In this document: positions 37,175-54,777 of the stretch, in pieces
Layout of the letters: every line of letters starts with the position of its first letter
How positions within the stretch are numbered: position 1 is the first letter of the stretch
Source: Hyphomicrobiales bacterium
GTDB taxonomy: Bacteria; Pseudomonadota; Alphaproteobacteria; Rhizobiales; OSC116
Assembly: GCA_002401855.1 (NCBI GenBank)
Contig: NVUH01000007.1
Location: 49,826-113,825 of the forward strand
Length of the DNA stretch: 64,000 bases
Direction of reading: 5' to 3'
The notes under the pieces: model-generated
Databases searched by the model: none
Told to the model about the DNA's origin: nothing
What the model saw: the letters and a program-made list of their open reading frames with translations, nothing else
Translations under genes and position numbers: made by a program

Positions 37175-37293
37175 GTGTTTCCTTAATTTTTTAATTTCAG
37201 ACAAAGCCGTAAAACAGATTTGCCATATTTGATTTATCTGCCATTGGGCAGGAGTTTTACTGTTAATAATGGCTTTCAATATGAGGCGGTTAA

Positions 37294-39146: not shown

Positions 39147-39164
39147 AAGTTTGGATCCGATTGG

Positions 39165-39198
39165 AACAACCAAATACAATATTCTGTATTTGGTTGTT
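39165..39198 (-). promoter_or_regulatory. Perfect 14-bp-stem hairpin between dctP and dctQ
   Basis: AACAACCAAATACA-ATATTC-TGTATTTGGTTGTT read directly; no U-tract. Confidence 0.5.
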
Positions 39199-39226
39199 TA
39201 AATATCAATGTAGAAATATTTACCGG

Positions 39227-40294
39227 TTATTTATTATCGGTTACTAAATAACCAGAATTTTCTGACCAGTTGGTTTGATATGCAAAATATGAATCCATTA
39301 CTTTTTGCATTGTATCATCACCATTAGCAGATAATTCCTTGGCCTTATTTCTAGCCCATTCGCGGCCAGCCACACGCAATTCTTCAACCACGGCTTTGTC
39401 GAGTTCAATAATTTCAACTTTCGTTTTTTTGTATTCAGCCATGGCATAAACATCGGCATGCCCAAAATGTGCATAGCTTTCGTAAGTTGTTAATTTTGCA
39501 GCTGCTTCAATTTGACGGCGTAATTGTTCTGGTAAGGCATCCCACTTCTCGGCTTTAATCACAACTTCCCACAAAAATGAAGGTTGATGAACTCCGGGGA
39601 GGATGATGTAAGGAGCGACTTCATGAAATCCTTCAGATAAGTTTGCCCCAGGAGTTGACCATTCAATTGCATCCACACCTTTTCTTTGTAATAAAGTATA
39701 TATTTCACCACCCGGCACTACGGTCGGCACGCCTTCATAGTTTTCTTTCACAACCGCAGCCCATGCGCCTGATGTTCTATATTTAAGTCCCTTAAAGTCG
39801 GCGGTTGTTCTAATTTCTACATTTGAATGAGCGAGAATTTCTGACGTTCCGATGCCGACGACTAATGAATGTAAACCCATTTTTTCGCGGCGAAAATCTT
39901 GCAACATTTTTTCTCCACCGCCATTATAAACCCAATGTAAAGTGGCTTCACCGCCCATGCCGCCGGGGAAACTAGCAAATATAGCATTGGTTGGGTCTTG
40001 GTTTACTAGATATGAAGGGGTGGAATGACCTGCATCAACTATGCCATCTTGAACGGCTTCAAAAACTTTAAATGCGGGTACAATGACGCCGGCACCAAAT
40101 GGTTGAATTTTAAGTTTTCCGCTGGTGATTATATCAACATTTGCGGCAAATCTTTCCATAAAGTTTTTGTAAAAGAATGAACCTTCTGATATGGCAGCTG
40201 GCATTCGCCAAGTAATTTCTGCAGATTGCGCGGCGGAAATGGAGCCAATACTTGCCATAAATATGGCTGGCATTAATAAAAATTTTAATTTCAT
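39227..40294 (-). CDS. dctP: TRAP transporter substrate-binding protein
   Basis: 355 aa, signal peptide MKLKFLLMPAIFMASIGSISAAQSA, DctP-family sequence. Confidence 0.9.
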   Translation of the reverse strand: MKLKFLLMPAIFMASIGSISAAQSAEITWRMPAAISEGSFFYKNFMERFAANVDIITSGKLKIQPFGAGVIVPAFKVFEAVQDGIVDAGHSTPSYLVNQDPTNAIFASFPGGMGGEATLHWVYNGGGEKMLQDFRREKMGLHSLVVGIGTSEILAHSNVEIRTTADFKGLKYRTSGAWAAVVKENYEGVPTVVPGGEIYTLLQRKGVDAIEWSTPGANLSEGFHEVAPYIILPGVHQPSFLWEVVIKAEKWDALPEQLRRQIEAAAKLTTYESYAHFGHADVYAMAEYKKTKVEIIELDKAVVEELRVAGREWARNKAKELSANGDDTMQKVMDSYFAYQTNWSENSGYLVTDNK

Positions 40295-40467
40295 AACAGT
40301 ATCCTTTTGATTTATTACTTCAGAATGAGAATGTGGTAATTAAGGTTGCTTTGGTGAGTATTGGTAATACTCATAAATATTTTTTTATCATTAAGCCCCT
40401 TGTTTATTTGGCCAATTGAAGTTTGAATAAACACCATTTATATTGGCTATTCATCAACGCTAGCATA

Positions 40468-40479
40468 ATTGTATACAAT
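40468..40479. promoter_or_regulatory. 12-bp perfect palindrome ATTGTATACAAT (GntR-type GT-N-AC operator candidate)
   Basis: Read directly in the 455-bp dctP / GntR divergent region, followed by half-repeat ATACAATT. Confidence 0.4.
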
Positions 40480-40749
40480 ATACAATTAACTTATAAAAAT
40501 ATTAATCCTAATGTATAATAGAAAAAAATCATATATATTACATTGTCTTAGGAAAGTTTTCTGTGTAATTTCGAAGTTTTTATTGTGCTAAATAATTAGC
40601 AAATAGAAAATAAGAGGGGCGGGAACTACCGTCGAGTTTTTCTTATATCTAATGGTTTTCGTGATTTTATTTAAGAATGCTTTGCATATAAAATTTTACA
40701 CGAGTGATGAAATATTCTATAGGGTTGCTGTATAACGAGGTGAAAAATA

Positions 40750-41406
40750 GTGGCAATTGCAAAAACAATTAAAAGACGAACACTAGCGGACGAGTCGTTT
40801 AATTTATTGAAGCAACGCATTATCTCTGGTTTTTATAAACCTGATCATGCACTTCGACAAGATGAGTTGGCTAAGGAATTAGGTGTTAGTCGAATTCCTC
40901 TACGTGAAGCACTCCTAAAACTCGAAGCAGATGGCTTGATTGATATTCTGGCTCATAAAGGCGGTATTGTACGTGCCTTATCCTTTGATAAAGCACAAGA
41001 ATTGTTTGACCTTAGAATTTTAATTGAATGTGATTTGATCGTTAAGTCGGTTCCAAAAATGACATCTGAAAATTTTGCAAATGCCGAAATTGCCTTAAAA
41101 GAATTTGATAAAATTGCTTTAAATGAGGAAAATATTGAGGATTGGACAGAATTAAATTGGCAATTTCATTATAAATTATATGAAGCCGCTGAAAAAGAAG
41201 AAACAATTAAGATATTGAAAAGTTTGCATTCAAACTGTGACCGTTATATCCGTAAGCAATTATTGGTTGCCGGCGCAGGAAACCAAGCTCATAAACAACA
41301 TATGAAATTGCTAGAATATTGTAAATCCGGCGACGTTTCTGCAGCAGTTGGGGAGTTAAAAAGCCATATTACAGAGGTTTTTAATGGAATAGGAGAGTTT
41401 GTCTGA
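40750..41406 (+). CDS. GntR/FCD-family transcriptional regulator
   Basis: 218 aa; ELAKELGVSRIPLREALLKLEADGLI HTH; GAGGTG SD before GTG. Confidence 0.85.
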   Translation: MAIAKTIKRRTLADESFNLLKQRIISGFYKPDHALRQDELAKELGVSRIPLREALLKLEADGLIDILAHKGGIVRALSFDKAQELFDLRILIECDLIVKSVPKMTSENFANAEIALKEFDKIALNEENIEDWTELNWQFHYKLYEAAEKEETIKILKSLHSNCDRYIRKQLLVAGAGNQAHKQHMKLLEYCKSGDVSAAVGELKSHITEVFNGIGEFV

Positions 41407-41564
41407 TTGCCGAACTATTGAAGATTATGGTATATCTTTTAATGAATTATTGGTAAAATGAAGGACACTATATTCCGAAGCCGATATTATTTGCAAAGAG
41501 AAAAAAATGTGAGGCGCACCCAATTTTAAAAGCCTATAAAAATGACCACTTGCTAAAATTTAAT

Positions 41565-41592
41565 TGTTTTATAGAATAGGGTGTCATAAAAC
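41565..41592. promoter_or_regulatory. Inverted repeat GTTTTAT-N13-ATAAAAC containing core TGTTTTATA
   Basis: Read directly about 30 nt upstream of the IclR ATG; same 9-mer as at 49123, 49142 and 55866. Confidence 0.4.
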
Positions 41593-41622
41593 TAAGCAGT
41601 AACCAATTGATATCAGGTGGTA

Positions 41623-42423
41623 ATGAGTAATTTTCAAAAACATAAAAATCACGACACTTATTTTGTTCCGGGTCTTTTTCGCGGGCTAAGAGTGTTGGAA
41701 ATTTTGGCCGAACACGAAGCACCTATGTCAACCAGTGAGTTGGCGCGCGAAATGAAAATTAGCCGCTCATCGGCATTTAGGTTGGTCTATACGCTTAATT
41801 ATATGGGCTTCACGCAAAACGCCAAAGGTTCACAAGATGTCGAACTTGGGGGGCGGGTGCTCAATTTAGGTTTTTCATTTTTGGCTTCACAAAAAATGGT
41901 TCAAACCGCACGTGATGATTTGAAAACACTGCGTGATGAAACAAAGATTTCTAGCCATATGGCAATATTGGAATCAAAAGAAGTGTTGTTTTTAGAGTGT
42001 ATTCAATCAAAATCAGGCCATTTAAGCAACGTCAATGTTGGGCGTCGTATGCCAGCTTATCAATCGCCATTGGGGTGGATATTGTTATCCGATCTCACCA
42101 GCCGTAAATTGATGGCACTTTATAAAGATGTTGAAATGATCCAGTTGACAGACAAAACACCCAACACGCCCAACATGTTGGTAAACGCAATCAATAAGGC
42201 GGCAGAAACAGGCATTGTGGTGAGTTATGGCGCGGTGGGCAAAGATGGCATATCAATTTCAGCACCGATATTTGATAAAGATGGCGCCATCATTGCCGCC
42301 ATTGATATTTCGGGCCCCAATGCGGCATTTGATATGAATGTGATAGAAAGCTTTTACATTCCTAATGTCGAAAAAGCCGCACAAAATATTTCCTCACGGC
42401 TGGGATATATTGGCAATTCCTAA
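41623..42423 (+). CDS. IclR-family transcriptional regulator
   Basis: GLFRGLRVLEILAEHEAPMSTSELAREMKISRSSAFRLVYTL; AGGTGG SD before ATG 41623. Confidence 0.85.
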   Translation: MSNFQKHKNHDTYFVPGLFRGLRVLEILAEHEAPMSTSELAREMKISRSSAFRLVYTLNYMGFTQNAKGSQDVELGGRVLNLGFSFLASQKMVQTARDDLKTLRDETKISSHMAILESKEVLFLECIQSKSGHLSNVNVGRRMPAYQSPLGWILLSDLTSRKLMALYKDVEMIQLTDKTPNTPNMLVNAINKAAETGIVVSYGAVGKDGISISAPIFDKDGAIIAAIDISGPNAAFDMNVIESFYIPNVEKAAQNISSRLGYIGNS

Positions 42424-42429
42424 TTGTTT

Positions 42430-43227
42430 TTAAAACCGCCCGCAATCTATTTTGGCTTTGTCTCCCGTGATGGCAGATGACGCATCAGAGGCATAATATA
42501 ACGCGGCATAACCGACCTCTAACGGGTCTACCCAACGTTTTAGGGCGGCAGGGTCGGTATAGTTTTCTTTCACGATGTCTTCGGTAGGGCGGCCTTCTGC
42601 AACGCTGCGTTTGGCTAATATCCTATCCATATTATCACCATAAACGGCACCTGGCATCAAAACATTACATCTAACGCCAAACTCTCCAACTTCGCGGGCA
42701 AGAGTTTCCGTCATGCCAACAAGTGCGAATTTAGAGGCACAATAGGCGCTGCGCATCGGGTAGCCTTGTATGCCCATTAATGATGACATATTGATGATAG
42801 ACCCGCTTTTTTGTCCGCACATAATTTTGCTGGCGGCTTTCATGCAATATACCGCGCCAAACAGGTTAACCTCCATACAAGCGCGCCATGCTTCAATGTC
42901 CAAATCTGCCATTGTAGCAATCGGCCCTGGGCCGCCCGCATTATTCACTAAAATGTCTATTTTCCCCGTTATCTTTAAAGCTTGGGCGAACAGGTTTTCG
43001 ACATCTTGCCAATTGGATACATCGCACTTTATGGCTGTGCCATTGACTAATTTAGCCACCACTTCTAATTTATCCATGCTTCGGCCTGCCACAACCACAT
43101 GTGCACCTGCTGCGGCAAAAATTTCGGCGCAGGCTTTGCCAATACCACTGCCACCACCAGTTATTATGGCAAGTTTTCCATCTAGGCGGGTGCGTTTTGC
43201 AATATCGTTATTAATATGAAATGTCAT
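42430..43227 (-). CDS. Short-chain dehydrogenase/reductase (SDR)
   Basis: ITGGGSGIGKA cofactor motif and YCASK active-site region; start abuts upstream stop. Confidence 0.85.
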   Translation of the reverse strand: MTFHINNDIAKRTRLDGKLAIITGGGSGIGKACAEIFAAAGAHVVVAGRSMDKLEVVAKLVNGTAIKCDVSNWQDVENLFAQALKITGKIDILVNNAGGPGPIATMADLDIEAWRACMEVNLFGAVYCMKAASKIMCGQKSGSIINMSSLMGIQGYPMRSAYCASKFALVGMTETLAREVGEFGVRCNVLMPGAVYGDNMDRILAKRSVAEGRPTEDIVKENYTDPAALKRWVDPLEVGYAALYYASDASSAITGDKAKIDCGRF

Positions 43228-44328
43228 TTATTTTCCAGTTTCGGTAAATTGCCTGTTGGGGTTGAAAAGCGGTAATTCTAATTCATTGCCCAAAATATAA
43301 TCACCCATTAATTTGGATATATAGGGCCCAATGGTAAAGCCACCGCGAACGCATCCCAATATATAGGCATTGGCAATGTTGCCCAATGCACCTGCGAGTG
43401 GGTAAAAATCGGGCACATTGGCCTCAAAGCCAGTCCAAGATCGGATGATCCTCAACGCCGATAAAGCGGGCAGAGCATATTGCGCCAGTTGAATGTTTGG
43501 AATTAAGGTCTGGGCATGCACTTTGCCGCGGCCTTCATTCGGGCTACCCGTGCCTTGCCATCCGCCGCCAATTAAAATACTGCCATTGGCTTTTTGTTTC
43601 ATGGTCAATAAACCTGTCGCATGGCCAATCACATTGCTTATTAATGTCGGACTACGCTCAGTGACTGAAACGGTATTCACTCTGGCCTGAATTGGTAAAT
43701 CAACATCAAGCAGAGCCGCCGCTTGCTTCATCCATCCGCCACACGCAAGCAAAAGGCGCTTGGCTTTATATTGTTGGCTTTCAGTATGGACGCTAAAGCC
43801 TTTGTCAGAGTGATCAATTTTAACGATTTGGTTTTGTTCAAGATAATCAACAGAGGAATGATTTAACAAATTTCGATAATATTGCCCAGTTAAGGAACTG
43901 TTTGCATAACCGTCATCGGCACAATAGCTAACAGCCATAACTTTTTTGCTGATATTGGGTTCATTTTCAAACAATATTTGTGGTGAAACAAACTCAATAT
44001 TCGCGCCCGCTTCGCGTTTTAATGTCATTCGTTCTTCTAGCAATTTGGCTTCTCGCTGGTTAAAAGCCAGTGTATAGCCACCTGTTTTGACAAACCCAAC
44101 TTTATCGCCCATTTTTTGCCATTCATGATGGCCTTTAAGGGCATAAGGCATCAACTTCACACGCTTAATTTGCAATGATAATGTGCCCGCATTCACACCC
44201 GATGCCCCTTGGCCAATGTCATCTTTTTCGAGCAATATGACCGACATGCCTGCTTCGGCTAAATGCAAAGCAGTTGCGCAGCCCATTATACCGCCACCAA
44301 TGATGGCTATGTCATAATTTTTGGTCAT
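43228..44328 (-). CDS. FAD-dependent oxidoreductase, DAO family (HcnC / opine-oxidase B / D-Hyp dehydrogenase beta-like)
   Basis: 366 aa; YDIAIIGGGIMGCATALHLAEAG dinucleotide fold. Confidence 0.8.
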   Translation of the reverse strand: MTKNYDIAIIGGGIMGCATALHLAEAGMSVILLEKDDIGQGASGVNAGTLSLQIKRVKLMPYALKGHHEWQKMGDKVGFVKTGGYTLAFNQREAKLLEERMTLKREAGANIEFVSPQILFENEPNISKKVMAVSYCADDGYANSSLTGQYYRNLLNHSSVDYLEQNQIVKIDHSDKGFSVHTESQQYKAKRLLLACGGWMKQAAALLDVDLPIQARVNTVSVTERSPTLISNVIGHATGLLTMKQKANGSILIGGGWQGTGSPNEGRGKVHAQTLIPNIQLAQYALPALSALRIIRSWTGFEANVPDFYPLAGALGNIANAYILGCVRGGFTIGPYISKLMGDYILGNELELPLFNPNRQFTETGK

Positions 44329-44334
44329 AATTTC

Positions 44335-45762
44335 CTATAAAGGCGCGGGCGCGGGAATGGGCAAATCATCATAATCAAAATTTTGAGCGATGGCACTGAT
44401 TGGCAAAGGACGTAACGGCGGGCGGTGTGTCGCCAAGCCAATTTGTTGGCGGGTTTTACCCGATATGGTTTGGTTGATGAGCGCAACAACATCACTGCAA
44501 TAGCGCCCGCCACACGGCCCCATTCCACATCTTGTGCCAGATTTTATGGCATTTGGTGAGAGTGCGCCGCTTGATATTTCAATTTCTAATTGTTGGCGGC
44601 TGACCGTTTCACATCTACAGATGATGGCCGTTTGTTGCGTATTTTTAATCATACCAGCGCGCAACACCGTAAGCTTTGTTGTCGCAAGGCCAAATTTTGC
44701 CGCCGATTTCATTCTTGCCACAAGTCTGTCGGTATTTTCGGCGTTTGCAAGTTTTAGAAACTGCAAAACCGCAATGGCTGCAAGCTTGCCTCGGTACGGC
44801 GCTGCGCCTGCGCCATAAATACCCGCATTGTCTCCCGCCGCAAATAAACCAACTTTATCTGTGCGGCCAAAATCATCGGTTTTTACATGCCATCCGCCAA
44901 GCTCTGGCGTATATATATGAGTGGCATCAGCAAGCTTTGTCGCTTCTATAGCGGGGTTTAGGCCATGCCCCATGCACAAGCTGTCGGCTTTTATATTTGT
45001 TTTTCGCCCCTGACTTACTGAGCTCCAATTTGCATCGACACGCGAAATATTTACCGAATCAATGTGAGTGTCGCCGATAATTTCGGTAATTGTAGATTGC
45101 CAATATATAGGAGTTCTTGCTGCGGCTATTTTAGCCAACCATCCCGCGCCACGTAATAGTAAATCTGGCCTCGCCATCATGTTAATTGATGCTTTTGCCC
45201 AGTCTGTTTTGGAGTTTAATGATACAATCGCAGTTATTTTTCCGCCCAACCTCAATATTTCATATGCCGTAAAAATAAGCAAAGGGCCACAACCCGCAAC
45301 AATGGTTTGTTTACCAGGAATTGTTAAATGCTGCTTAAATAAAGCCGTGGCCGCAGCCAAGCCAATAACACCCGGTAATTGAGCGCCTACCACAGGTATA
45401 ACTCGTTCTTGCGCGCCTGTTGCGGCAATAATGGCTTTGCAAGTCGCATTGTGCAATTGGCCATTATTTAAATAACCAATATTCCACAAATCATCATTGT
45501 TTTTTTCAATTTGCCACACTCTTGCATTTGCAATGTGTAAAATATTGTTTGATTTTAAGTCACTGCGTAATTTATCGCCTGCGATGGTTTCTGGCGTTTT
45601 GGGTGCGCTTATAATACTAGGTGATTTTGCCCGCCAAACTTGCCCACCTGCTTCGGCTTGTTCATCAAGCATAAGTATTTTGGCGCCGGCTTTGGCCGCT
45701 TCCAAGGCTGCGTGGCTGCCTGCCGCGCCCGCGCCAATAATAATCAAGTCAAAGTCAGACAT
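44335..45762 (-). CDS. FAD/NAD(P)-binding oxidoreductase with BFD-like [2Fe-2S] Cys motif (HcnB / opine-oxidase A-like)
   Basis: FDLIIIGAGAAGS; ICRCE...RCGMGPCGGRYC; AGGGAGG SD before ATG 45762. Confidence 0.8.
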   Translation of the reverse strand: MSDFDLIIIGAGAAGSHAALEAAKAGAKILMLDEQAEAGGQVWRAKSPSIISAPKTPETIAGDKLRSDLKSNNILHIANARVWQIEKNNDDLWNIGYLNNGQLHNATCKAIIAATGAQERVIPVVGAQLPGVIGLAAATALFKQHLTIPGKQTIVAGCGPLLIFTAYEILRLGGKITAIVSLNSKTDWAKASINMMARPDLLLRGAGWLAKIAAARTPIYWQSTITEIIGDTHIDSVNISRVDANWSSVSQGRKTNIKADSLCMGHGLNPAIEATKLADATHIYTPELGGWHVKTDDFGRTDKVGLFAAGDNAGIYGAGAAPYRGKLAAIAVLQFLKLANAENTDRLVARMKSAAKFGLATTKLTVLRAGMIKNTQQTAIICRCETVSRQQLEIEISSGALSPNAIKSGTRCGMGPCGGRYCSDVVALINQTISGKTRQQIGLATHRPPLRPLPISAIAQNFDYDDLPIPAPAPL

Positions 45763-46078
45763 TTTTGCCTCCCTTGGCCTTTGGCTCCTCATATAACGAA
45801 CCAATGCTTTGTACAATTAACCCTTCAGATAATGCCACTTGGCAAGCTTCTATGCGCAATCCGCCTATCAACAATACACATTCTTGGCAGGTGCCCATAA
45901 AGCAAAACGCACCTCTTGCACTGCCATCGTGAGCCATTCGCGTGGTTATGATGCCATTTGCGGCCAAGGCAACAGTCACACTTTCGCCTAAATGACCAAA
46001 ATAAGTGGTTCCGTTGAAACTAAATTCAACCAGTTGGCTACGTTTAACTTTCGAACCTGTTTGCCTAAAAAAACGCAT
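45755..46078 (-). CDS. Small (2Fe-2S)-binding subunit (HcnA-like)
   Basis: FSFNG...GAFCFMGTCQECV; stop overlaps next start by 8 nt; start (46078 ATG or 46087 TTG) uncertain. Confidence 0.7.
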   Translation of the reverse strand: MRFFRQTGSKVKRSQLVEFSFNGTTYFGHLGESVTVALAANGIITTRMAHDGSARGAFCFMGTCQECVLLIGGLRIEACQVALSEGLIVQSIGSLYEEPKAKGGKNV

Positions 46079-46089
46079 GAAGTGCAACT

Positions 46090-46989
46090 TTATTGGTAAG
46101 AAATGTTGAGTGAATCAAAACATTTTTTAATTTTATCTATATCTACCTGCGTGGCTGCATTCACTGGCTCGCGAGGCACGCCAGCAGGCAGGCCAATTAA
46201 ATTTAACGCCGCCTTAAACGAGGCTGGCCACGTTGCCGTACTCATTAATAATTCATACAATACAGTTAAATCATAATGTAATTTTTTATATTCTTCATTC
46301 GGGCTTTGGGTGGCGATTTGAGATATACGCTTGGTTATATCGCCTAAAAATTCTGGCCCCGTGGCAATAAAACCTTTTGCACCCAAACCAATTGAAGGCA
46401 GTATATAATGGCATGGCCCGACCATAATAGACATTCTATCGGCAAACCTCTCAATTAAATGCGTGTGATGAAAAAAATCCCGTTGAGATTCTTTAATGCC
46501 AATAATCGGCGCGACATCTAAAATAGCCCCAATGTCATCGACAGACATATTAAGCCCCGCTCTGCGTGGTGAATTATAAGCAATAATCGGCAAATCGCAG
46601 CCAGCAGCTAGGTTCTCGAAGCGGGCTAACAATTCATCGCGAGTTGCTTTAAGCACATAAGTTTGCGGCATAGCCAAGATAGCCGAAGCTCCGTTTTCTT
46701 TGGCTTCGTGACAATAGGCAAGACTGGCTTTTAGGGTCGGTGCCGATACGCCCGTTATAATCGGCACACGGCCTGCCGATGTTTCAACGGCTAATTTCGT
46801 CAACCGCCCGCGTTCTTCTGGTGATAATGTCCAGCTTTCGCCATTGTCGCCCGAGACGCAAATGGCGGTTGCGCCATTGACAATGAGCCAATTGACGATT
46901 TCTTTAAAGTCATCCTCCATAATGTCGCCCGCTTTATTAAACGGTGTGACGACGGCAGGCACAAAGCCATGTAAATCTTGTTTTTGCAT
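46090..46989 (-). CDS. DHDPS-family protein (aldolase or Pyr4H2C-deaminase-like)
   Basis: 299 aa; GFVPAVVTPF...ICVSGDNGESWTLSPEER. Confidence 0.8.
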   Translation of the reverse strand: MQKQDLHGFVPAVVTPFNKAGDIMEDDFKEIVNWLIVNGATAICVSGDNGESWTLSPEERGRLTKLAVETSAGRVPIITGVSAPTLKASLAYCHEAKENGASAILAMPQTYVLKATRDELLARFENLAAGCDLPIIAYNSPRRAGLNMSVDDIGAILDVAPIIGIKESQRDFFHHTHLIERFADRMSIMVGPCHYILPSIGLGAKGFIATGPEFLGDITKRISQIATQSPNEEYKKLHYDLTVLYELLMSTATWPASFKAALNLIGLPAGVPREPVNAATQVDIDKIKKCFDSLNISYQ

Positions 46990-46992
46990 TTT

Positions 46993-47880
46993 TTAACTCT
47001 CATTTACGGAAATGTTGATGCGGTAAATTGCACCATATTGTGCTTCAATTATATATAATTCATTTTGGTTTTTTGGCTGAAAGGCAATGCTGGTTACCCA
47101 TAAACCTTGCGGTAAGCGTATGTCCAACAACAAGTCACCTAAAGGCGAATAAATATAAACGCGCCCCTTTTGGGCATGAGCAACGGCTAACTTATCATCT
47201 TCATTAATCGCCAACCCATCTGGGCCTAATCCTCCAGTTAGCTGTATATAATTGCCAACCATTGGGTATGTGGGTTCGGGTTTGTTGGTTTTAAACTTCC
47301 ACACTGCATTGGCGCGGGTGGCCGCTACAAAACAGCTTTGCCCATTGGGTGATGTCACAATCCCATTGGGGTAGGGGACATTGTTAAGGATGAGGCTCAA
47401 ACCATCTAAATTATTATATTTATATACGCAACCTGTCGGGTTAGAAAGGCTTGTGCGGCCACAGTCGGTAAAATAATAATCACCATTGGCTGCGATGGTT
47501 AAATCCGAAAGGCCTTTAAACGGCACTCCATTATAAGCAGTGACAATTGTTGATAGCTTATTTTTTTTCGGCGCGTATTTTACCAGACCTAACTTGTAAT
47601 CAACAATGATAAAATCGCCATTCTTATCTATTTTTATGGAATGTGGCTCACCGTCATATTGGTAGAATAATTGCCATTCACCAAGCTGGGTGATTTTAAA
47701 AATGCGTCCGTAAGGCACATCAACTAAATATAAATTGCCATCAGCATCAAATTCGGGGCCTTCAAGAAATGAATGTAAATTTTGCCCCGGTCTGGTCATT
47801 TTAACCCAGTCATTCGGCGCGCCTTTAAAATGCAGCTCTTCTGGCAATTGAGTGAACAGACTTGCGGTTATTTTTGCCAT
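46993..47880 (-). CDS. SMP-30/gluconolactonase/LRE-like beta-propeller protein
   Basis: 295 aa; LEGPEFDADGNLYLVDVPYGRIFKI, PNGIVTSPNG repeats. Confidence 0.8.
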   Translation of the reverse strand: MAKITASLFTQLPEELHFKGAPNDWVKMTRPGQNLHSFLEGPEFDADGNLYLVDVPYGRIFKITQLGEWQLFYQYDGEPHSIKIDKNGDFIIVDYKLGLVKYAPKKNKLSTIVTAYNGVPFKGLSDLTIAANGDYYFTDCGRTSLSNPTGCVYKYNNLDGLSLILNNVPYPNGIVTSPNGQSCFVAATRANAVWKFKTNKPEPTYPMVGNYIQLTGGLGPDGLAINEDDKLAVAHAQKGRVYIYSPLGDLLLDIRLPQGLWVTSIAFQPKNQNELYIIEAQYGAIYRINISVNES

Positions 47881-49052
47881 TATAATATCACTCCGCTTTT
47901 TCTAAGCGCTGCTATTTCTTCAGGTTTAACATCAATTTGTTGCAAAATTTCATCCGTATGTTGCGAAATTTGCGGCGCAGAACGTGTTAATTTCACTCCG
48001 CCTTCATCTGCAAATTTGTAAGCAGATGTGGGTATATATTGGGGCTTGCCATTAATTGTCACTTTTTCAAAAAATTGTCGCGTATCAAGCTGCTGGTCAT
48101 TAACCGCAGCTGCCAAAGGGCGCAATTTTTCGGCTGGTAAGCCAATATTGTGCATATATTCCTGCCAAAACTCGGCCGTATTTTGTAAAAACACACTCCG
48201 CAATTCGGTGTAAAGACTCTCGCCAGCTTTCCACAACTCATCCCATTCATTCAAAATTGGAATTCTAATGTGGCAATAACCATCTAGAGACAAGGCTTTT
48301 AAACATTTGCTCATCTGCTGCGGCGTAAAAGCCCCTAAACATAATTCACCCTGTTGAGTTGGGTATATTTTAATGCCAGCTTCCAAATGGTTTGGGTTGT
48401 TATGTTGGTTTTTCTCTCGTGCCGCTTCAGGCGCCATCATTAACAAGGCCGTTTCATACATTGAAACTGAAATATAAGCCCCCATTCCCGTTCGTTCGGC
48501 TCTAAAAAGTGCAGCCGAAATTGCAAAAGCTGCCTCTAAACCTGTTGCATAATCTACAAAGGAAACACCAGGTTTATGCCCGCCACTTTGGCTAATGATG
48601 CCGCTTGAAGCCTGTATCACATTGTCATAAGCATTGGTTTTGGCTTTGTTGCCGGTCGCCCCAAAACCAGTGATTGAGCAATATATTAGCTTTGGGTTGA
48701 CGGCGGTTAGTGCTTTATAACCAAGCCCCAACTCATCAAGTGCAGAGGTGCGGTAATTTTCCACCAATATGTCGGCTTGCTTGATGAGTTTTTTAAATAT
48801 CGTTTGACCTTGGTAAGTTTTAAGGTCGATGCTGATTGCACGTTTATTGCCACCCTGCACTTGATAATTCATACCCAGCATTTTGTTGTTTTGAGAGACA
48901 TCACCACCGCGTCCCCGCGCGCAGTCTGGGTTTTTTGGGTTTTCAACTTTGATAACGTCAGCGCCCAATAGGGCGAATTGATAGGTTGCGAAAGGTCCTG
49001 CGAGAACATGTGTTAAATCAATGACTTTGATGTCTTTAAACGGTTGGCTCAC
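47880..49052 (-). CDS. Family III CoA-transferase (CaiB/BaiF)
   Basis: FKDIKVIDLTHVLAGPFATYQFALLGADVIKVE; stop shares 1 nt with next start. Confidence 0.85.
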   Translation of the reverse strand: MSQPFKDIKVIDLTHVLAGPFATYQFALLGADVIKVENPKNPDCARGRGGDVSQNNKMLGMNYQVQGGNKRAISIDLKTYQGQTIFKKLIKQADILVENYRTSALDELGLGYKALTAVNPKLIYCSITGFGATGNKAKTNAYDNVIQASSGIISQSGGHKPGVSFVDYATGLEAAFAISAALFRAERTGMGAYISVSMYETALLMMAPEAAREKNQHNNPNHLEAGIKIYPTQQGELCLGAFTPQQMSKCLKALSLDGYCHIRIPILNEWDELWKAGESLYTELRSVFLQNTAEFWQEYMHNIGLPAEKLRPLAAAVNDQQLDTRQFFEKVTINGKPQYIPTSAYKFADEGGVKLTRSAPQISQHTDEILQQIDVKPEEIAALRKSGVIL

Positions 49053-49122: not shown

Positions 49123-49157
49123 TGTTTTATACACTAAATTATGTTTTATATACAAAC
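49123..49157. promoter_or_regulatory. Two adjacent TGTTTTATA boxes (GTGTTTTATACAC and ATGTTTTATATACAAAC)
   Basis: Read directly in the divergent promoter region; the 17-mer is identical to 55865-55881. Confidence 0.45.
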
Positions 49158-49193: not shown

Positions 49194-50552
49194 ATGACCG
49201 CTTTATTGCATCGAGACCTAAAATCTAACTTACCTATTGTAGTCAAAGGTGAGGGGTCTTATTTATTTGATGCCAAAAATAATAAATATTTAGATGCATG
49301 TGGCGGCGCCGCAGTGGCAAGTCTAGGTCATTCTCACCCAAAAGTTTTAAAAGCCATAAAAGCTCAATTGGATGATTTTTCATTCGCCCATACCGGTTTT
49401 TTTACCAACAATCCCGCCGAGCAACTTGCCTTAAAACTGCAACAATATGCACCTAAAGGTTTTGAAAATGCCCGCACCATGTTTTTAGGTTCAGGTTCTG
49501 AGGCGATGGAGGCCGCCATAAAACTTGCGCGCCAATTTCACCTAGAAAATGGCGAAGCCAGCCGAACCAAATTAATATCACGCGAATTTGCTTATCATGG
49601 CAATACACTTGCGGCGCTTGCTGTTGGTGGCCATCCAGAACGGCGCAAACCCTTTTTGCCTTTACTGCTTTGCGTCGGGCGCATTCCTGCATGTTATGCA
49701 TATCGTGAGCAGCAAGATTTTGAAAGTGAAGAGCAATATGGCATTCGCGCGGCCAATTATTTGGAAGCAGAAATTCTACGTTTAGGCGCAGACACTGTGG
49801 CGGCATTTACTGTAGAGCCAGTATCTGGCGCTACATTGGGCAGTGTGGTGGCGGCAAAGGGCTATTTTAAGCGCATACGTGAAATTTGCGACCAATATGG
49901 CGTGTTATTGATTGCTGATGAAGTTATGTGTGGGATGGGGCGTACAGGCACAATGTTTGCCATTGAACAAGAAGGCATTACCCCTGATATCATCACCATG
50001 GCGAAAGGTTTGGCGGCTGGCTACCAGCCTTTAGCCGCGGTTATGGCATCGGATAAAGTGGTGAATGTTATTTTGTCTGGTAGTGGTAAATTATGGAATG
50101 GCCACACCTATATGAGCCATGCTGTGGCTTGTGCAGGCGCACTTGCAGTGCTGAATGTCATCGAAGAGGAAAATTTATTAGAAAATGTAAATGTCCAAGG
50201 CAAAAAATTAGCCAAAGCGTTAAAACAAGAATTTTCAAACCGCGATTATATCGGCGACATTCGGGGGCGCGGTTTATTTTGGTCGTTAGAGCTTGTGCAA
50301 AATAAACGGACCAAGCAACCGTTTGACGCGGCATTGGGCTTGGCCGCTAAATTCAAATCAAAAGCATTTGAGAATGGTTTGCTCACCTATCCTGCTAGCG
50401 GGTTTATTGATGGCAAGTTGGGCGATCATGTTCTATTGGCACCACCGTATAATGTTTCAGATGCAGAAATATCTGAAATTATAAAAAAATTAGCGATTAC
50501 TTTTGATCAAATTATGCCAGTTTTAGCAAATGAGGGGCAAATTAATGACTGA
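49194..50552 (+). CDS. Class III (omega) aminotransferase
   Basis: YLDACGGAAVASLGHSHP, LIADEVMCGMGRTG, PDIITMAKGL (PLP-Lys); ATG 49194 preferred to GTG 49122, which lies inside the boxes. Confidence 0.85.
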   Translation: MTALLHRDLKSNLPIVVKGEGSYLFDAKNNKYLDACGGAAVASLGHSHPKVLKAIKAQLDDFSFAHTGFFTNNPAEQLALKLQQYAPKGFENARTMFLGSGSEAMEAAIKLARQFHLENGEASRTKLISREFAYHGNTLAALAVGGHPERRKPFLPLLLCVGRIPACYAYREQQDFESEEQYGIRAANYLEAEILRLGADTVAAFTVEPVSGATLGSVVAAKGYFKRIREICDQYGVLLIADEVMCGMGRTGTMFAIEQEGITPDIITMAKGLAAGYQPLAAVMASDKVVNVILSGSGKLWNGHTYMSHAVACAGALAVLNVIEEENLLENVNVQGKKLAKALKQEFSNRDYIGDIRGRGLFWSLELVQNKRTKQPFDAALGLAAKFKSKAFENGLLTYPASGFIDGKLGDHVLLAPPYNVSDAEISEIIKKLAITFDQIMPVLANEGQIND

Positions 50553-51420
50553 TAAAACAATCATCACTTGCGCAATAAATGGCAATTTAACCAAATTGTC
50601 TCAACATCCAGACTTGCCCATAACTCCACAACAAATTGCCAAAGCGGCATTAGACGCAGCCGATGCAGGCGCGGCAATTGTCCATTTACATGTCAGAAAT
50701 CCGGAAACATCAATTGGTTGTATGGATTTAGATTTGTATGAAGAAATGTATCATTTGATCAGATCAAAAAACACTGACCTCATTATAAACCTCACTACAG
50801 GCGAAGGCGGACGGTTTGTTCCCTCTGATGATGACCCGCAAATGGCCGCAAAAGGCAGCACGCTTTGCAGCCCAGAGCGCCGTGTCGAACATGTAAAAAG
50901 ACTAAAGCCCGAAATTTGCACCTTAGATTTCAATACAATGTGGTCTGGGCAAGCGGCCGTAATTAACAGCCCGCGAAATGTCAAAATTATGGCAGATATT
51001 ATTTACGCCGCAGGAACAAAACCTGAGATTGAATTATTTGATGGTGGCGACTTAAATATGGCGTTAGATTTCCTTAAAAAAGGCATCATCAAAGCGCCGT
51101 TAATGATGCAAATTGTGATGGGGGCAAATTATGGTGCCATTGCAAACCCGCAAACATTAATGTATCTGGTGTCTCAAATACCAAAGGACACTGTGTGGGC
51201 AGCGTTTGGCATTGGGCGGCACGAATTCCCAATGGTTGCACAGGCCTTTCTTTTGGGCGGTCATGTAAGGGTTGGTATGGAGGATAATTTGCAAATTAGC
51301 AAAGGTGTTTTGTGCAAAGATAACGCACAATTGGTTGGCAAAGCCAAATTGATCATTGAAAATTTGGGCGGAACCATAGCCACTCCAACAGATGCACGCA
51401 AAATGCTAGATTTAACCTAA
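50545..51420 (+). CDS. BKACE (DUF849) family beta-keto acid cleavage enzyme, second paralog
   Basis: IITCAINGNLTKLSQHPDLPITPQQIA...AGAAIVHLHVRN; ATG overlaps aminotransferase stop by 8 nt. Confidence 0.85.
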   Translation: MTDKTIITCAINGNLTKLSQHPDLPITPQQIAKAALDAADAGAAIVHLHVRNPETSIGCMDLDLYEEMYHLIRSKNTDLIINLTTGEGGRFVPSDDDPQMAAKGSTLCSPERRVEHVKRLKPEICTLDFNTMWSGQAAVINSPRNVKIMADIIYAAGTKPEIELFDGGDLNMALDFLKKGIIKAPLMMQIVMGANYGAIANPQTLMYLVSQIPKDTVWAAFGIGRHEFPMVAQAFLLGGHVRVGMEDNLQISKGVLCKDNAQLVGKAKLIIENLGGTIATPTDARKMLDLT

Positions 51421-51436
51421 TGTATTGGAGGCTGAA

Positions 51437-52075
51437 ATGGTGAAAAATAATATGAATGACACGATAAACCCAACCAATAGGTTGCCGCTCACCAATGAAG
51501 ACACCGTCGGGCCCTATTATCCTATTTGTTATGATCATGATGACCGAATGGATTTAACCAAATCAATTGTTGGCCAACAATTCGAGCCCAAAGGTGACAA
51601 AATTATCCTTCGTGGGCGGTATATAGATAAAAATGGCGACGGCGCACATGGCGCATTGATAGAGTTTTGGCAAGCCAACGCCCAAGGGGTGTTTAGAACC
51701 GAAGACACAGAATCTTCGCCAGAAATTGACCCACATTTCGATGGTTATACGCGATACCGCACTGTCACTGGCGATTTTGAACTTAAAACCATAAAATCTG
51801 GCACGCAATTAGGCCGTGCGCCCAACATCACTTTGACATTGTTTTCAGATGGCATTTCAAGACTGGTGACCCAAGTTTTCTTTGAAAATGAAATTTCAAA
51901 TGAAACCGACCCCGTGCTCATGTCGTTGCCGCAAGATAAACGTGACAAATTAATTGCGCGACTTGTTGGTGAAGATGACGATAACATTCCGATTTATGAC
52001 ATTGAAATTATTTTGGCAGGTGAGGGTGAGACGCCCTTTTTTGATGATTTTTTAGCATTAGGGTGGAGAGATTAA
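51437..52075 (+). CDS. pcaG: Protocatechuate 3,4-dioxygenase alpha-subunit-like (intradiol dioxygenase family)
   Basis: TVGPYYP..., IEFWQANAQGVF...; GGAGG SD before ATG 51437. Confidence 0.65.
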   Translation: MVKNNMNDTINPTNRLPLTNEDTVGPYYPICYDHDDRMDLTKSIVGQQFEPKGDKIILRGRYIDKNGDGAHGALIEFWQANAQGVFRTEDTESSPEIDPHFDGYTRYRTVTGDFELKTIKSGTQLGRAPNITLTLFSDGISRLVTQVFFENEISNETDPVLMSLPQDKRDKLIARLVGEDDDNIPIYDIEIILAGEGETPFFDDFLALGWRD

Positions 52076-52743
52076 TGGAAAAATTAGGTAGAAAATTACG
52101 CATTGGCCCGACCGACAATACATCTTATGAGCGCACGCCGAGAGAAAATTTACGCATCATCCCGCCTGCCGCGCGCGATAGCTTTTTACCATATTCTCGG
52201 GTGCAGCCCGGCATTCGCTTGGGCGAAAACGACTTAACACGCTTAGCGCCCGATCTGCCACGTGCTGATGGTGATGCGATAGAAATGAGCGGCCAAATAT
52301 TGGATGACACTGGCCAGCCGCTCCGTCATGCTTTGGTCGAAATTTGGAACGCCAATAAATATGGTAAATATGCTCATGATTTAGATGGTTATAGCGCTCC
52401 GTTAGACCCTAATTTTATTGGCCTTGGCCGTATGTTGACTGATGAAGAAGGCCGATATAAATTTTGGACAATCGACCCTGGATGCTATCTTGCACGGCCT
52501 GATATTAACAGGTGGCGGCCGAAACATATTCATTTGTCTATAAGGGGCGGTGCATCACGGCTCATCACGCAAATGTATTTTAAAGATGCCGAACATAATG
52601 ACACCGACCCCATGCGCATTGTGATGGGTGATGATTTTCATTTAAACATCGGCAAACAATATGAAACACCCAATATAGACGTTGAGCGCGGGTATAAATT
52701 TGACATTGTGATAAGAGGCAAAGACTCAACTTTTTTTGAGTAG
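52075..52743 (+). CDS. pcaH: Protocatechuate 3,4-dioxygenase beta-subunit-like
   Basis: VEIWNANKYGKYAH, DPGCY, WRPKHIHLSI (positions of the Tyr/Tyr/His/His iron ligands appear conserved by eye); TAATG overlap with alpha. Confidence 0.7.
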   Translation: MEKLGRKLRIGPTDNTSYERTPRENLRIIPPAARDSFLPYSRVQPGIRLGENDLTRLAPDLPRADGDAIEMSGQILDDTGQPLRHALVEIWNANKYGKYAHDLDGYSAPLDPNFIGLGRMLTDEEGRYKFWTIDPGCYLARPDINRWRPKHIHLSIRGGASRLITQMYFKDAEHNDTDPMRIVMGDDFHLNIGKQYETPNIDVERGYKFDIVIRGKDSTFFE

Positions 52744-54707: not shown

Positions 54708-54727
54708 TTATTCTAACCTGTAAAATA

Positions 54728-54757: not shown

Positions 54758-54777
54758 ACGATCGTAATGAATGTAGA

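Follow-up and report, generated by a model that had tools for sequence, protein, structure and literature searches.

What is degraded by an operon that joins a three-subunit, amino-acid-type flavoprotein dehydrogenase to a class I lyase, a probable lactone hydrolase, a CoA-transferase and an SDR is the question raised by a locus of a Hyphomicrobiales bacterium (GenBank assembly GCA_002401855.1, contig NVUH01000007.1), here analysed in a stretch of 64,000 nucleotides that we call the window. The minus-strand operon runs from 49052 to 42430, and each of its seven genes overlaps its neighbour or sits at most 6 nt from it. All seven open reading frames and their junctions are as the preliminary description had them, and Pfam returns precisely the domains that it named for each.

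Organization and conservation of the locus

The features of the operon and of its surroundings are as follows.

47880-49052, minus strand: family III CoA-transferase, first gene of the operon (CoA_transf_3, PF02515 at 1.5e-83)
46993-47880, minus strand: SMP-30/gluconolactonase (SGL) six-bladed propeller, probable lactone hydrolase (PF08450 at 3.5e-29)
46090-46989, minus strand: DHDPS/NAL-family class I (Schiff-base) lyase (PF00701 at 1.3e-47)
45755-46087, minus strand: gamma subunit, [2Fe-2S] protein, start uncertain (Fer2_4, PF13510)
44335-45762, minus strand: alpha subunit, FAD/NAD(P)-type Rossmann protein with BFD-like Cys cluster (Pyr_redox_2, PF07992; Fer2_BFD, PF04324)
43228-44328, minus strand: beta (catalytic) subunit, DAO-family flavoprotein (PF01266 at 7.8e-50)
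42430-43227, minus strand: classical SDR, final gene of the operon (adh_short, PF00106 at 8.2e-56)
41617-42423, plus strand: IclR-family regulator, convergent with the operon (PF09339, PF01614)
49141-49157, plus strand: 17-nt box ATGTTTTATATACAAAC, 89-105 nt upstream of the operon's first gene
49194-50552, plus strand: class III (amine:pyruvate-type) aminotransferase, divergent from the operon (PF00202 at 2e-100)
50530-51420, plus strand: beta-keto acid cleavage enzyme (BKACE), overlapping the aminotransferase gene (PF05853 at 2.7e-92)
51425-52743, plus strand: PcaG/PcaH-like intradiol dioxygenase pair (alpha 51425-52075, beta 52063-52743; PF00775 twice)
52770-55779, minus strand: TAXI-TRAP transporter (fused QM 52770-54707, PF06808; binding protein 54778-55779, PF16868)
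55865-55881, plus strand: exact second copy of the 17-nt box, 86-102 nt upstream of the TAXI binding-protein gene

Read from the sequence, the CoA-transferase and SGL genes overlap by 1 nt in the TAATG at 47880, the gamma and alpha genes overlap by 8 nt at 45755-45762 (ATGTCTGA), and the TAA of the beta gene abuts the ATG of the SDR gene (43228/43227), the other junctions being gaps of 3 nt (SGL/DHDPS, 46989/46993), 2 nt (DHDPS/gamma, 46087/46090) and 6 nt (alpha/beta, 44328/44335). No convincing internal terminator was found inside the seven-gene operon, whose genes are probably co-transcribed. Although the longest open reading frame of the alpha subunit (44335-45816) opens at TTG 45816, ATG 45762 is the better start because GGGAGG precedes it. 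The gamma gene may begin at TTG 46087 or ATG 46078, neither with a clear ribosome-binding site, and its product has 110 aa in the window versus 92-94 aa in orthologues. The aminotransferase frame opens at GTG 49122, with ATG 49194 as the likely start; its match to NF005685 (an unnamed equivalog, 629 bits) begins at residue 25.

The order CoAT-SGL-DHDPS-Fer2-PyrRedox-DAO-SDR, opposite AT3-BKACE, is found in about 56 loci, and the seven genes keep their order in about 50 of the best 80 genome loci and on two plasmids; because the same order recurs across loci, the grouping is more than chance. The seven genes singled out earlier are only one arm of a larger conserved unit, the divergent aminotransferase-BKACE pair being equally conserved, and the most conserved genes of the cluster are those for the dehydrogenase, the DHDPS-like enzyme and the SGL protein. 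The IclR gene is present in 51 loci, and the regulator scores best against the PcaR/PcaU/PobR model (145 bits, under cut-off). Orthologues of the TAXI-TRAP transporter (TIGR02122, 193 bits) adjoin the cluster in 8 other loci, and amino-acid-type transporters (AA_permease, SBP_bac_3 ABC) are attached at some. In the window, the two copies of the 17-nt box share their orientation and stand at nearly equal distances from the seven-gene and TAXI operons.

Core enzymes and their closest relatives

None of the seven proteins reaches an NCBIfam equivalog, no function is assigned to them in curated models, solved structures or the literature found, and no paper describing this gene set was found, in line with the earlier statement that it fits no described pathway. 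In D-hydroxyproline catabolism, a three-subunit dehydrogenase (LhpBEF) is followed by a DHDPS-family enzyme (LhpC). The window shares this pairing with Azospirillum brasilense, in which LhpC is a deaminase acting on the resulting cyclic imine or 2-oxo acid (Watanabe and co-workers), and the architecture common to HcnABC, opine dehydrogenase and D-hydroxyproline dehydrogenase, to which the trio had been likened, is borne out by its subunits and motifs. The Cys motif of gamma, the two ADP-binding motifs and the Arg-x-Trp motif of beta, known from the FAD/FMN/[2Fe-2S] enzyme LhpBEF, recur here: the gamma subunit carries C62-x4-C67-x2-C70-x11-C82, the gamma motif of Watanabe 2015; the alpha subunit has GxGxxG at 10-15 and the cluster C382-x-C384-x27-C412-x4-C417, with a spacer of 27 residues instead of 15-20; and the beta subunit, which among solved structures comes closest to glycine oxidase and the PDH1 beta subunit 1y56_B, has GxGxxG at 11-16 and the FMN motif R296-S-W298. 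The three products would be expected to form a complex. On the other hand, the hydroxyproline epimerase and ketoglutarate-semialdehyde dehydrogenase, rightly said to be missing from the cluster, are absent from all of the approximately 56 loci (the only Pro_racemase gene of the window's genome lies on another contig), identity of the DHDPS-like protein to other family members encoded on plasmids does not exceed 35%, and the cluster adds genes for a CoA-transferase, SGL protein, SDR, aminotransferase, BKACE and dioxygenase. HcnABC shares the order of small 2Fe-2S, Pyr_redox_2-type and DAO-type subunits and is likened by architecture only, whereas the set here lies within a nine-gene catabolic cluster and nothing points to the oxidation of glycine to cyanide.

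Identification of the DHDPS-like protein as DapA was rejected (TIGR00674, 159 bits versus a cut-off of 206); the genome's real dapA is on another contig (320 bits). The motifs GDNGESW, YNSPRR and GxKES (Lys166) are kept in 40 orthologues, the enzyme thereby retaining the Schiff-base Lys and the two Arg of YNSPRR, whose counterpart in DapA, Arg138, presumably binds the partner's carboxylate. The nearest solved relative of the SGL protein is the Drp35 lactonase (1.8e-18); the motifs SFLE, PYxNG and GGLGPDG are invariant among orthologues, and a signal peptide is not evident in its sequence. The CoA-transferase finds its best NCBIfam and PDB matches among dicarboxylate or formyl/oxalyl-CoA transferases, all far under cut-off, and its AYDNxIQAxSG motif is kept across 41 orthologues. 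In the SDR, TGGGxGIG and the Ser-Tyr-x3-Lys triad are present, and strand beta2 is followed by a conserved Gly-Arg, a feature that among SDRs in general suggests NADP(H). In the divergent arm, the closest structures to the aminotransferase are omega-transaminases; BKACE, about 52% identical to PDB 9zsc, is under the cut-off of all named equivalogs and scores highest against Kce, the amino-keto-acid enzyme (243 bits), not the 3-oxoadipate type (158 bits).

A modified dioxygenase and its aromatic front end

Both subunits of the dioxygenase fall under the TIGR02422/3 cut-offs. The beta subunit retains Tyr408, Tyr447, His460 and His462, together with Arg457, leaving the Fe ligands intact; Trp449 is replaced by Ala and Tyr324 by Asp18, the latter invariant in 21/21 orthologues. 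In 3,4-PCD structures, Tyr324 presumably hydrogen-bonds the substrate carboxylate, and for this reason Asp at its position would fit a cationic substituent; the amine would therefore remain at the time of ring cutting. The dioxygenase lies inside the locus in 35 of 56 cases, just outside it in Bosea LjRoot90 and elsewhere in the genome in Aliikangiella. Front-end genes, namely two unrelated sulfatase families, FGE, SfmD_perox, a P450, a phenol-hydroxylase-type FAD enzyme and a 2OG oxygenase, occur within 10 kb of 16/35 dioxygenase loci versus 1/21 loci without dioxygenase (Fisher p = 0.001, for loci that are not phylogenetically independent). Four kinds of aromatic hydroxylase thus accompany the dioxygenase, of which SfmD is tyrosine-3-hydroxylase-like, SfmD-type enzymes hydroxylating free tyrosines. 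The window's genome (94.7% complete) contains no canonical PcaH, no PcaB and no homogentisate dioxygenase, so that further conversion of the ring-fission product must fall to the cluster itself. The protocatechuate branch of the beta-ketoadipate pathway, in which BKACE replaces PcaIJF in some pca clusters (PMC8963497), shares the PcaGH-type dioxygenase, the PcaR-like IclR and the terminal BKACE; in contrast, PcaB, PcaC and PcaD are absent here, the dioxygenase is the sub-cut-off form with Asp at Tyr324 and BKACE is not of the 3-oxoadipate type.

A candidate lower pathway and its alternatives

Our analyses suggest, with a probability of about one half, that the operon and the aminotransferase-BKACE pair together take over after ring cleavage, as the lower pathway by which a catecholic amino compound is degraded; L-DOPA or tyrosine and their O-sulfates are the most plausible candidates. 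The domains, the architecture and the lack of a matching pathway in the preliminary description therefore stand, whereas the extent of the conserved unit and the substrate are revised: a ring-fission product of an amino-catechol is likelier than hydroxyproline or an opine because a modified dioxygenase, sulfatases and aryl hydroxylases are attached. In the order we favour, a sulfatase would free the phenol, a hydroxylase would make the catechol and the Asp-bearing PcaGH variant would open the ring at the bond that joins the two hydroxylated carbons, so that the resulting muconate keeps its aminated side chain. Capture of the electrophilic carbon of this muconate would lead to a lactone if a carboxylate is the partner and to a proline-like imino acid if it is the side-chain amine. 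The lactone would be opened by the SGL propeller to a beta-hydroxy acid and oxidized by the SDR to a beta-keto acid; the imino or amino acid would be oxidized by the membrane-linked alpha-beta-gamma dehydrogenase to an imine, whose hydrolysis would give a 2-oxo acid with the beta-amine left, and the aminotransferase would convert this hypothetical beta-amine substrate to the same kind of beta-keto acid. From it and acetyl-CoA, BKACE would form acetoacetate and a dicarboxylyl-CoA, and the family III CoA-transferase would release the free acid. Lys166 of the DHDPS-family enzyme would finally form a Schiff base with the remaining 2-oxo acid, a 4-oxalomesaconate-like compound, to yield pyruvate and a C4 dicarboxylate. 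In the protocatechuate 4,5-cleavage/gallate pathway, the LigJ hydratase and LigK aldolase act on 4-oxalomesaconate; the likeness of the last intermediate and its split is one that we infer, and the class I (Lys Schiff base) enzyme here belongs to another family. The sequence lactone, beta-hydroxy acid, beta-keto acid, acyl-CoA plus acetoacetate is shared with the Pseudomonas simiae deoxyribonate operon, in which a cluster of the same lactonase, SDR dehydrogenase and BKACE families is genetically proven (10.1101/205583), although here the set is joined to amino-acid-oxidizing enzymes, a class I lyase and an aromatic front end, and BKACE is under all named equivalog cut-offs.

Several points count against this scheme, which is one among several that balance the carbon count. 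Of the nine TAXI-bearing loci, seven lack the dioxygenase, and three genomes of this kind have solely a canonical-like PcaH; the core can therefore operate where the supposed front end is missing, on a substrate that we cannot specify. The cluster encodes no cycloisomerase, and the lactone or imino acid would have to arise without an enzyme or through an activity of the SGL protein for which there is no precedent; alpha-amino acids are seldom substrates of class III aminotransferases; and the SDR gene is missing from one Bosea subgroup.

The best-surviving alternative, which we consider unlikely, overlaps the amino-catechol reading instead of excluding it: the nine-gene core would chiefly consume an imino or amino polycarboxylic acid that is not aromatic, such as a proline or pipecolate with substituents or some other non-protein amino acid of plants or algae. 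In the window, TAXI would import this compound directly, and the dioxygenase, hydroxylases and sulfatases would be optional add-ons feeding an aromatic precursor into the same route in some lineages. The core stands without dioxygenase in 21/56 loci, and likewise in 7/9 TAXI-bearing loci; IMCC20636, Hoeflea and Stappia have solely a canonical-like PcaH in their genomes, the three-subunit enzyme has the motifs of the imino-acid/opine dehydrogenase family, and its combination with a DHDPS-family enzyme follows hydroxyproline logic. However, a close relative resembles the window in having TAXI as well as the dioxygenase, no specific compound suggests itself, and clusters with and without dioxygenase are equally similar orthologues, so that one shared chemistry is probable.

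It is improbable that the dioxygenase acts last, with beta-tyrosine or a similar aromatic beta-amino or imino acid having its side chain degraded by the core. Aminotransferase (to an aroyl-acetate), BKACE (to aroyl-CoA), CoA-transferase (to hydroxybenzoate), hydroxylase and, only afterwards, intradiol ring cleavage would make a chemically simple chain, canonical PcaGH occurs elsewhere in genomes without the cluster dioxygenase, and the IclR is of PcaR/PobR type. Yet a benzoate is hard to reconcile with an Asp that invariably stands where Tyr324 would bind the carboxylate, the PcaB needed for the product is absent from the window's genome, SfmD-type enzymes act on free tyrosines, and no role is left for the dehydrogenase, the DHDPS-like enzyme and the SGL protein, the most conserved genes.

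Somewhat less probable again is that the cluster serves a modified form of opine or N-carboxyalkyl amino acid catabolism, in which the three-subunit enzyme would split a secondary amine as OdhABC/OoxAB do and the remaining genes would consume both halves. Subunit composition and motifs are those of a flavin-containing opine dehydrogenase, the gamma-alpha-beta order is that reported for Burkholderia thailandensis OdhC-A-B (PMC4575208), and rhizobial loci carry an SBP_bac_3 ABC importer, a type used for opines; but identity of the beta subunit is only 23.8% with OoxB of pTi15955 and 26.8% with a second Ti-plasmid beta subunit, the neighbouring genes are not those for opine uptake and ornithine cyclodeaminase, most carriers live in the sea and a subsurface metagenome is the source of the window, and the dioxygenase with its aryl front end and BKACE are left unexplained. 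An oxidative (amino-)sugar-acid route of deoxyribonate or Weimberg type, with the SDR as sugar or hydroxy-acid dehydrogenase, SGL as aldonolactonase, the DHDPS-like protein as KDG-type aldolase/dehydratase and BKACE for the final cleavage, is very improbable: the proven deoxyribonate set does comprise lactonase, SDR and BKACE, and non-phosphorylative pentose pathways combine SDR, SMP-30 lactonase and DHDPS-family enzyme, but sugar-acid dehydratase, kinase and sugar transporter are absent from all loci, the regulator is of aromatic-acid type, and what recurs beside the set is an amino-acid-type dehydrogenase, an aminotransferase and the aryl front end.

Carriers of the cluster belong to the alpha-, beta- and gammaproteobacteria and include Bosea, Rhizobium, Emcibacteraceae, Kordiimonadaceae, Rhodobacteraceae, Stappiaceae, Sphingomonas, Casimicrobiaceae, Aliikangiella and Halieaceae, the plasmid copies being those of Sulfitobacter SK012 and R. 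leguminosarum. The seven genes are the constant core of a rare, unstudied cluster that has spread by horizontal transfer.

Organization of the gene cluster and its putative operator

The cluster consists of known enzyme families in an undescribed combination, and we give about an even chance (roughly 0.5) to the general statement that it is the lower pathway of an amino-catechol cluster. The preliminary description could map the gene set to no described pathway, a view that still stands, since no publication on this set was found in a full-text literature search and no named NCBIfam equivalog was passed: none of the seven operon proteins, the BKACE or the dioxygenase reached the cut-off of a named-function model. 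The NetSyn BKACE preprint does not mention the partner genes. The genes are arranged as follows.

42430-49052, minus strand: predicted seven-gene operon, in order of transcription (by Pfam) CoA_transf_3, SGL (SMP-30/gluconolactonase), DHDPS, Fer2_4, Pyr_redox_2 with C-terminal Fer2_BFD, DAO and adh_short (the SDR)
Convergent with the SDR gene: IclR gene
49194-50552 and 50530-51420, plus strand: overlapping genes for a class III aminotransferase and BKACE, divergent from the operon
51425-52743, plus strand: PcaG/PcaH-like intradiol dioxygenase pair, which with the two preceding genes lies directly upstream of the operon
52770-55779, minus strand: TAXI-TRAP transport system, beyond the dioxygenase pair and on the opposite strand from it

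Reading of the ORFs and junctions bore out the seven codirectional genes of the preliminary description and their tight coupling, with TAATG at 47880, gaps of 3, 2 and 6 nt, an abutting stop and start (TAA then ATG at 43228/43227) and an overlap at 45755-45762 (ATGTCTGA), where GGGAGG precedes the ATG at 45762; of the seven starts, only that of the small 2Fe-2S gene is uncertain. In a consensus scan, promoter-like and terminator-like sites occurred in the operon region at about their frequency in shuffled sequence, and no convincing terminator was seen inside the seven-gene block.

If the aminotransferase starts at ATG 49194, where the match to the curated model begins, the divergent spacer is 141 nt. 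The exact 17-mer ATGTTTTATATACAAAC (core GTTT-N7-AAAC) is present at 49141-49157 and at 55865-55881, that is, 89-105 nt upstream of the first gene of the seven-gene operon and 86-102 nt upstream of that of the TAXI operon, in identical orientation relative to the two operons; by a rough estimate, the chance of an exact match of this length in ~600 nt of AT-rich promoter DNA is below 0.01. The 17-mer fits a candidate common operator, presumably recognised by the IclR protein, and upstream of the IclR gene, near 41561-41575, is a weaker, degenerate copy.

Predicted enzymes and the systems they resemble

The operon proteins are predicted members of the three-subunit dehydrogenase family and of the DHDPS, SGL, SDR and family III CoA-transferase superfamilies. 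Solved structures are those of distant relatives only, except for BKACE, which is ~52% identical to PDB 9zsc.

The dehydrogenase is encoded by three adjacent, overlapping, separate genes for gamma (PF13510), alpha (PF07992 and PF04324) and beta (PF01266). The features of the D-hydroxyproline, opine, HCN-synthase and archaeal proline dehydrogenases have been listed by Watanabe et al. (PMC4575208), with Cys-x4-Cys-x2-Cys-x11-12-Cys as the family motif of gamma and Cys-x-Cys-x15-20-Cys-x4-Cys as that of alpha. In the window, gamma carries C62-x4-C67-x2-C70-x11-C82, and alpha retains all four cysteines (C382-x-C384-x27-C412-x4-C417), with a spacer of 27 against the 15-20 of the family and a match to Pfam Fer2_BFD. 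The ADP-binding GxGxxG motif is present N-terminally in alpha (10-15) and beta (11-16), and the Arg-x-Trp (FMN) motif of beta (R296-S-W298) lies in an RxWTG kept in 44 orthologues. Judged by its subunit set and by the gamma, ADP-binding and Arg-x-Trp motifs, the enzyme is a predicted member of the alpha-beta-gamma flavoprotein dehydrogenase family. Its beta subunit is 23.8% identical to OoxB of pTi15955, 26.8% to a beta subunit of pTi186 and below 30% to other plasmid-borne homologues, in a tblastn comparison covering Ti-plasmid OoxB and Odh-like genes only, and the enzyme is predicted to form its own branch within the three-subunit family. The earlier label of an HcnABC/opine-oxidase-like trio holds for the three-subunit architecture and the gamma and beta motifs, but not for a close kinship to OoxB. 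A further match, on a Ralstonia megaplasmid, had no annotation.

The DHDPS-like protein keeps the Schiff-base lysine K166 (GIKES) and the catalytic tyrosine Y138 (YNSPRR) in 40 orthologues and is a predicted member of the DHDPS/NAL class I aldolase superfamily. Its identity to other plasmid-borne family members does not exceed 35%. Its TIGR00674 score of 159 bits, below the 206-bit cut-off, rules out DapA, and in place of DapA's GTTGES, with its GTTGE motif and Thr44, it reads GDNGES; a true dapA (320 bits) is found on another contig of the genome, G000:C38. The SGL protein matches PF08450, and its E40, N172 and D221 are invariant, in the usual xLEGP, PNG and PDG contexts; by comparison with SMP-30/Drp35 structures they are the putative Glu/Asn/Asp metal site of lactonases. 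The SDR keeps its catalytic triad and a Gly-Arg typical of NADP(H) users. In orthologue alignments the CoA-transferase keeps its Asp motif, and its nearest named relatives use succinyl- or other dicarboxylyl-CoA; BKACE likewise keeps His-x-His and Glu. The latter belongs to PF05853 (2.7e-92) and scores best with Kce, the lysine-fermentation enzyme with an amino-keto acid substrate (243 bits vs a cut-off of 382), and worst with the 3-oxoadipate type (158 vs 350), with 3,5-dioxohexanoate at 205 vs 430. All are below cut-off, which rules out these named specificities.

Two further units of the window carry related genes. A second, more distant BKACE-family gene (16094-16861, minus strand; PF05853, 172 bits) adjoins the ORF at 16862-17800, near an IS element noted in the preliminary description, and the one TAG found inside this match in a whole-genome search is likely to be the stop codon of the ORF itself. 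At 36236-40294 (minus strand), a DctPQM TRAP transporter is directly followed downstream by another DHDPS-family gene (347 aa), beside a divergent GntR/FCD regulator (40750-41406, plus strand); this is a different small catabolic unit (36236-41406), which is not conserved with the seven-gene cluster.

Among known systems, the opine pathway (OoxAB, OdhABC) is ruled out by the low identity of beta to OoxB and by a transporter of the TAXI-TRAP type. The hydroxyproline pathway (LhpA, LhpBEF, LhpC, LhpD) differs in its epimerase and ketoglutarate-semialdehyde dehydrogenase. These were reported earlier as missing from the window's cluster, which we confirm, and neither is among the recurrent neighbours in ~56 related loci; membership is ruled out by this lack. 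The genome's only Pro_racemase gene (414 bits) is on another contig (G000:C31:18463-19452). In D-hydroxyproline catabolism the three-subunit dehydrogenase is followed by a DHDPS-family enzyme. In deoxyribonate catabolism, the enzymes of a lactonase-SDR-BKACE operon convert a lactone first to a beta-hydroxy acid, then to a beta-keto acid and finally to acyl-CoA and acetoacetate (10.1101/205583), and protocatechuate clusters can end in BKACE in place of PcaIJF (PMC8963497). In its make-up the operon resembles the LhpBEF/LhpC pair fused to a lactonase-SDR-BKACE set of the deoxyribonate type and to the final part of a pathway for aromatic ring cleavage.

Distribution, dioxygenase and neighbouring genes

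Loci were gathered from homologues of the SGL protein, their genomic surroundings were fetched and all were scored with the window's proteins. Because our own ORF calling gave spurious antisense ORFs in high-GC loci, several "families" without a Pfam match were discarded. Orthologues of the seven genes in unchanged order, opposite an aminotransferase-BKACE pair and in most cases with an IclR gene, were found in ~56 loci, with amino-acid identities of 40-70%. The carriers are alphaproteobacterial (Bosea, Rhizobium, Emcibacteraceae, Kordiimonadaceae, many Rhodobacteraceae, Stappiaceae, Sphingomonas, Tistlia), betaproteobacterial (Casimicrobiaceae) and gammaproteobacterial (Aliikangiella, Halieaceae, Pseudomonadales). 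SGL homologues below ~44% identity, mostly from Burkholderiales, have unrelated gene contexts; the cluster is therefore rare, occurring in some tens of species among 185,579 species genomes. It is also horizontally mobile, and complete copies are borne by one Sulfitobacter plasmid and one conjugative R. leguminosarum plasmid. Cultured carriers include Sulfitobacter sp. SK012, Celeribacter arenosi, Pacificibacter maritimus, Bosea sp. LjRoot90 and R. leguminosarum GLR17. The window's genome is a MAG from a subsurface metagenome, and a close relative, MAG NORP194, is 87-96% identical in the cluster proteins. Among sequencing runs, a subsurface metagenome, probably the source of the DNA, was the only one to contain the stretch, and no RNA run was listed as containing it. 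In an Emcibacteraceae MAG (locus L085, 12040-13448), the alpha-subunit gene was called in two pieces of 66 and 403 aa, which suggests a frameshift or an assembly error.

The PcaGH-like pair lies inside 35 of the 56 loci; in Bosea LjRoot90 it is just outside the fetched stretch, and Aliikangiella has a clear orthologue elsewhere in its genome. This dioxygenase is not a canonical PcaGH, being below the cut-offs of TIGR02422 and TIGR02423 (182 vs 296 and 118.5 vs 126 bits) and having its Tyr324 contact residue replaced. When its beta subunit was aligned to P. putida PcaH, chain indices 108, 147, 160, 162 and 157 were Tyr, Tyr, His, His and Arg in both, confirming the 3,4-PCD numbering. The iron ligands and Arg457 are kept, so the intradiol site is intact and the protein is still an intradiol dioxygenase. 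On the other hand, Trp449 is replaced by Ala and Tyr324, which in 3,4-PCD complexes binds the protocatechuate carboxylate, by Asp18, invariant in 21 of 21 cluster-linked orthologues. An acidic residue at this position would fit a positively charged substituent and supports a predicted adaptation to an aminated catechol, in which case the amine would still be attached when the ring is cut.

Around dioxygenase-bearing clusters of various lineages we found two unrelated sulfatase families, a formylglycine-generating enzyme (FGE), a SulP exporter, an SfmD_perox haem enzyme, a P450, a phenol-hydroxylase-type flavoprotein, a 2OG oxygenase, an alpha-hydroxy-acid oxidase and an AspC/TyrB-type aminotransferase. 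SfmD_perox is the family of the tyrosine 3-hydroxylases in lincomycin and saframycin biosynthesis. Of the 35 loci with the dioxygenase, 16 have front-end genes (sulfatases, FGE and aryl hydroxylases), as does 1 of the 21 that lack it (p = 0.001, a value that is indicative only because the loci are related). Transporters vary by locus (TAXI, TctABC, SBP_bac_3 amino-acid ABC, AA_permease, MFS, EamA), and all suit an organic acid or an amino acid. No canonical PcaH, PcaB or homogentisate dioxygenase is encoded in the window's genome (3.08 Mb, 94.7% complete), and the cluster itself must therefore deal with the dioxygenase product.

The richest version of the cluster is that of Sulfitobacter sp. 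SK012 plasmid NZ_CP025806 (locus L084), which is surrounded by three sulfatases, an FGE, an alpha-hydroxy-acid oxidase, an AspC/TyrB-type aminotransferase, an MBL-fold hydrolase, a SulP transporter and an SfmD-like gene annotated as hypothetical, making it a good experimental model. The rhizobial versions (Bosea and Rhizobium; loci L001/L012, L087, L091 and L043) have in common a distinct accessory set of an SBP_bac_3 amino-acid ABC importer, a second SDR, a GntR regulator, a gamma-carbonic-anhydrase-like hexapeptide protein and a FAD_binding_2 oxidoreductase of ~530-590 aa. Their SDR and FAD_binding_2 proteins resemble ring-aromatising dehydrogenase pairs and may be an alternative front end.

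A putative route for amino-catechols

Although the odds are well against it, the cluster might encode an aerobic route, hitherto undescribed, by which catecholic amino acids of the L-DOPA or tyrosine type and their sulfate esters are broken down, and the stepwise scheme that we infer for it is equally tentative. The PcaGH variant with Asp in its substrate pocket would perform intradiol cleavage of a DOPA-type compound to a 3-substituted muconate, in which the carbon beta to one carboxylate would have two possible nucleophiles: the other carboxylate, which would yield a 3-substituted muconolactone, or the side-chain amine, which would form a proline-like imino acid; no cycloisomerase is encoded in the cluster. 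The lactone would be converted by SGL and then the SDR to a beta-keto acid, whereas oxidation of the imino acid by the dehydrogenase and hydrolysis would yield a 2-oxo acid with a beta-amine, which an amine:pyruvate-type aminotransferase would turn into the same kind of beta-keto acid, so that the branches would converge. BKACE would cleave this acid with acetyl-CoA, and the family III CoA-transferase would free the acid from CoA. The remaining 2-oxo acid would resemble 4-oxalomesaconate, to be hydrated and split by the DHDPS-like class I lyase into pyruvate and a C4 diacid, in the boldest version oxaloacetate. Net products would be acetoacetate, pyruvate and the C4 diacid, and the carbon balance closes (C9 to C2 + C3 + C4).

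As proposed, the scheme gives every conserved gene a role, and it would explain both the translational fusion of the aminotransferase and BKACE genes and the absence of the SDR from one Bosea subgroup. Counting against it, 7 of 9 TAXI-bearing loci have neither dioxygenase nor front-end genes, and three TAXI-bearing, dioxygenase-free genomes hold a canonical-like PcaH only; the core can therefore run on a directly imported compound. TAXI and the dioxygenase occur together in the window and in its close relative. Other readings were considered: a reverse DapA reaction on diaminopimelate or teneraic-acid-type compounds leaves most genes without a role, the known genes of pantothenate, ectoine and mimosine routes differ, and carnitine or betaine demethylation finds no support in the gene context; all were dropped.

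If true, the amino-catechol route would be a third bacterial way to consume tyrosine-derived aromatics, besides the homogentisate and homoprotocatechuate routes, and would provide first functions for the Asp-type PcaGH, a new DHDPS-family lyase, the Kce-like BKACE, the cytoplasmic SGL lactonase and family III CoA-transferase subfamilies, and a fourth branch of the HcnABC/Lhp/Odh dehydrogenase family. From an ecological point of view, the cluster is scattered over three proteobacterial classes from root, marine and subsurface habitats and is carried on conjugative or large plasmids of a legume symbiont and a roseobacter. In such habitats, plants, algae and invertebrates could plausibly supply DOPA, tyrosine sulfate and related catechols as nutrients. 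Should the substrate prove to be another, the nine-gene core (the seven-gene operon and the aminotransferase-BKACE pair) would still be a compact and well-defined target for substrate discovery.
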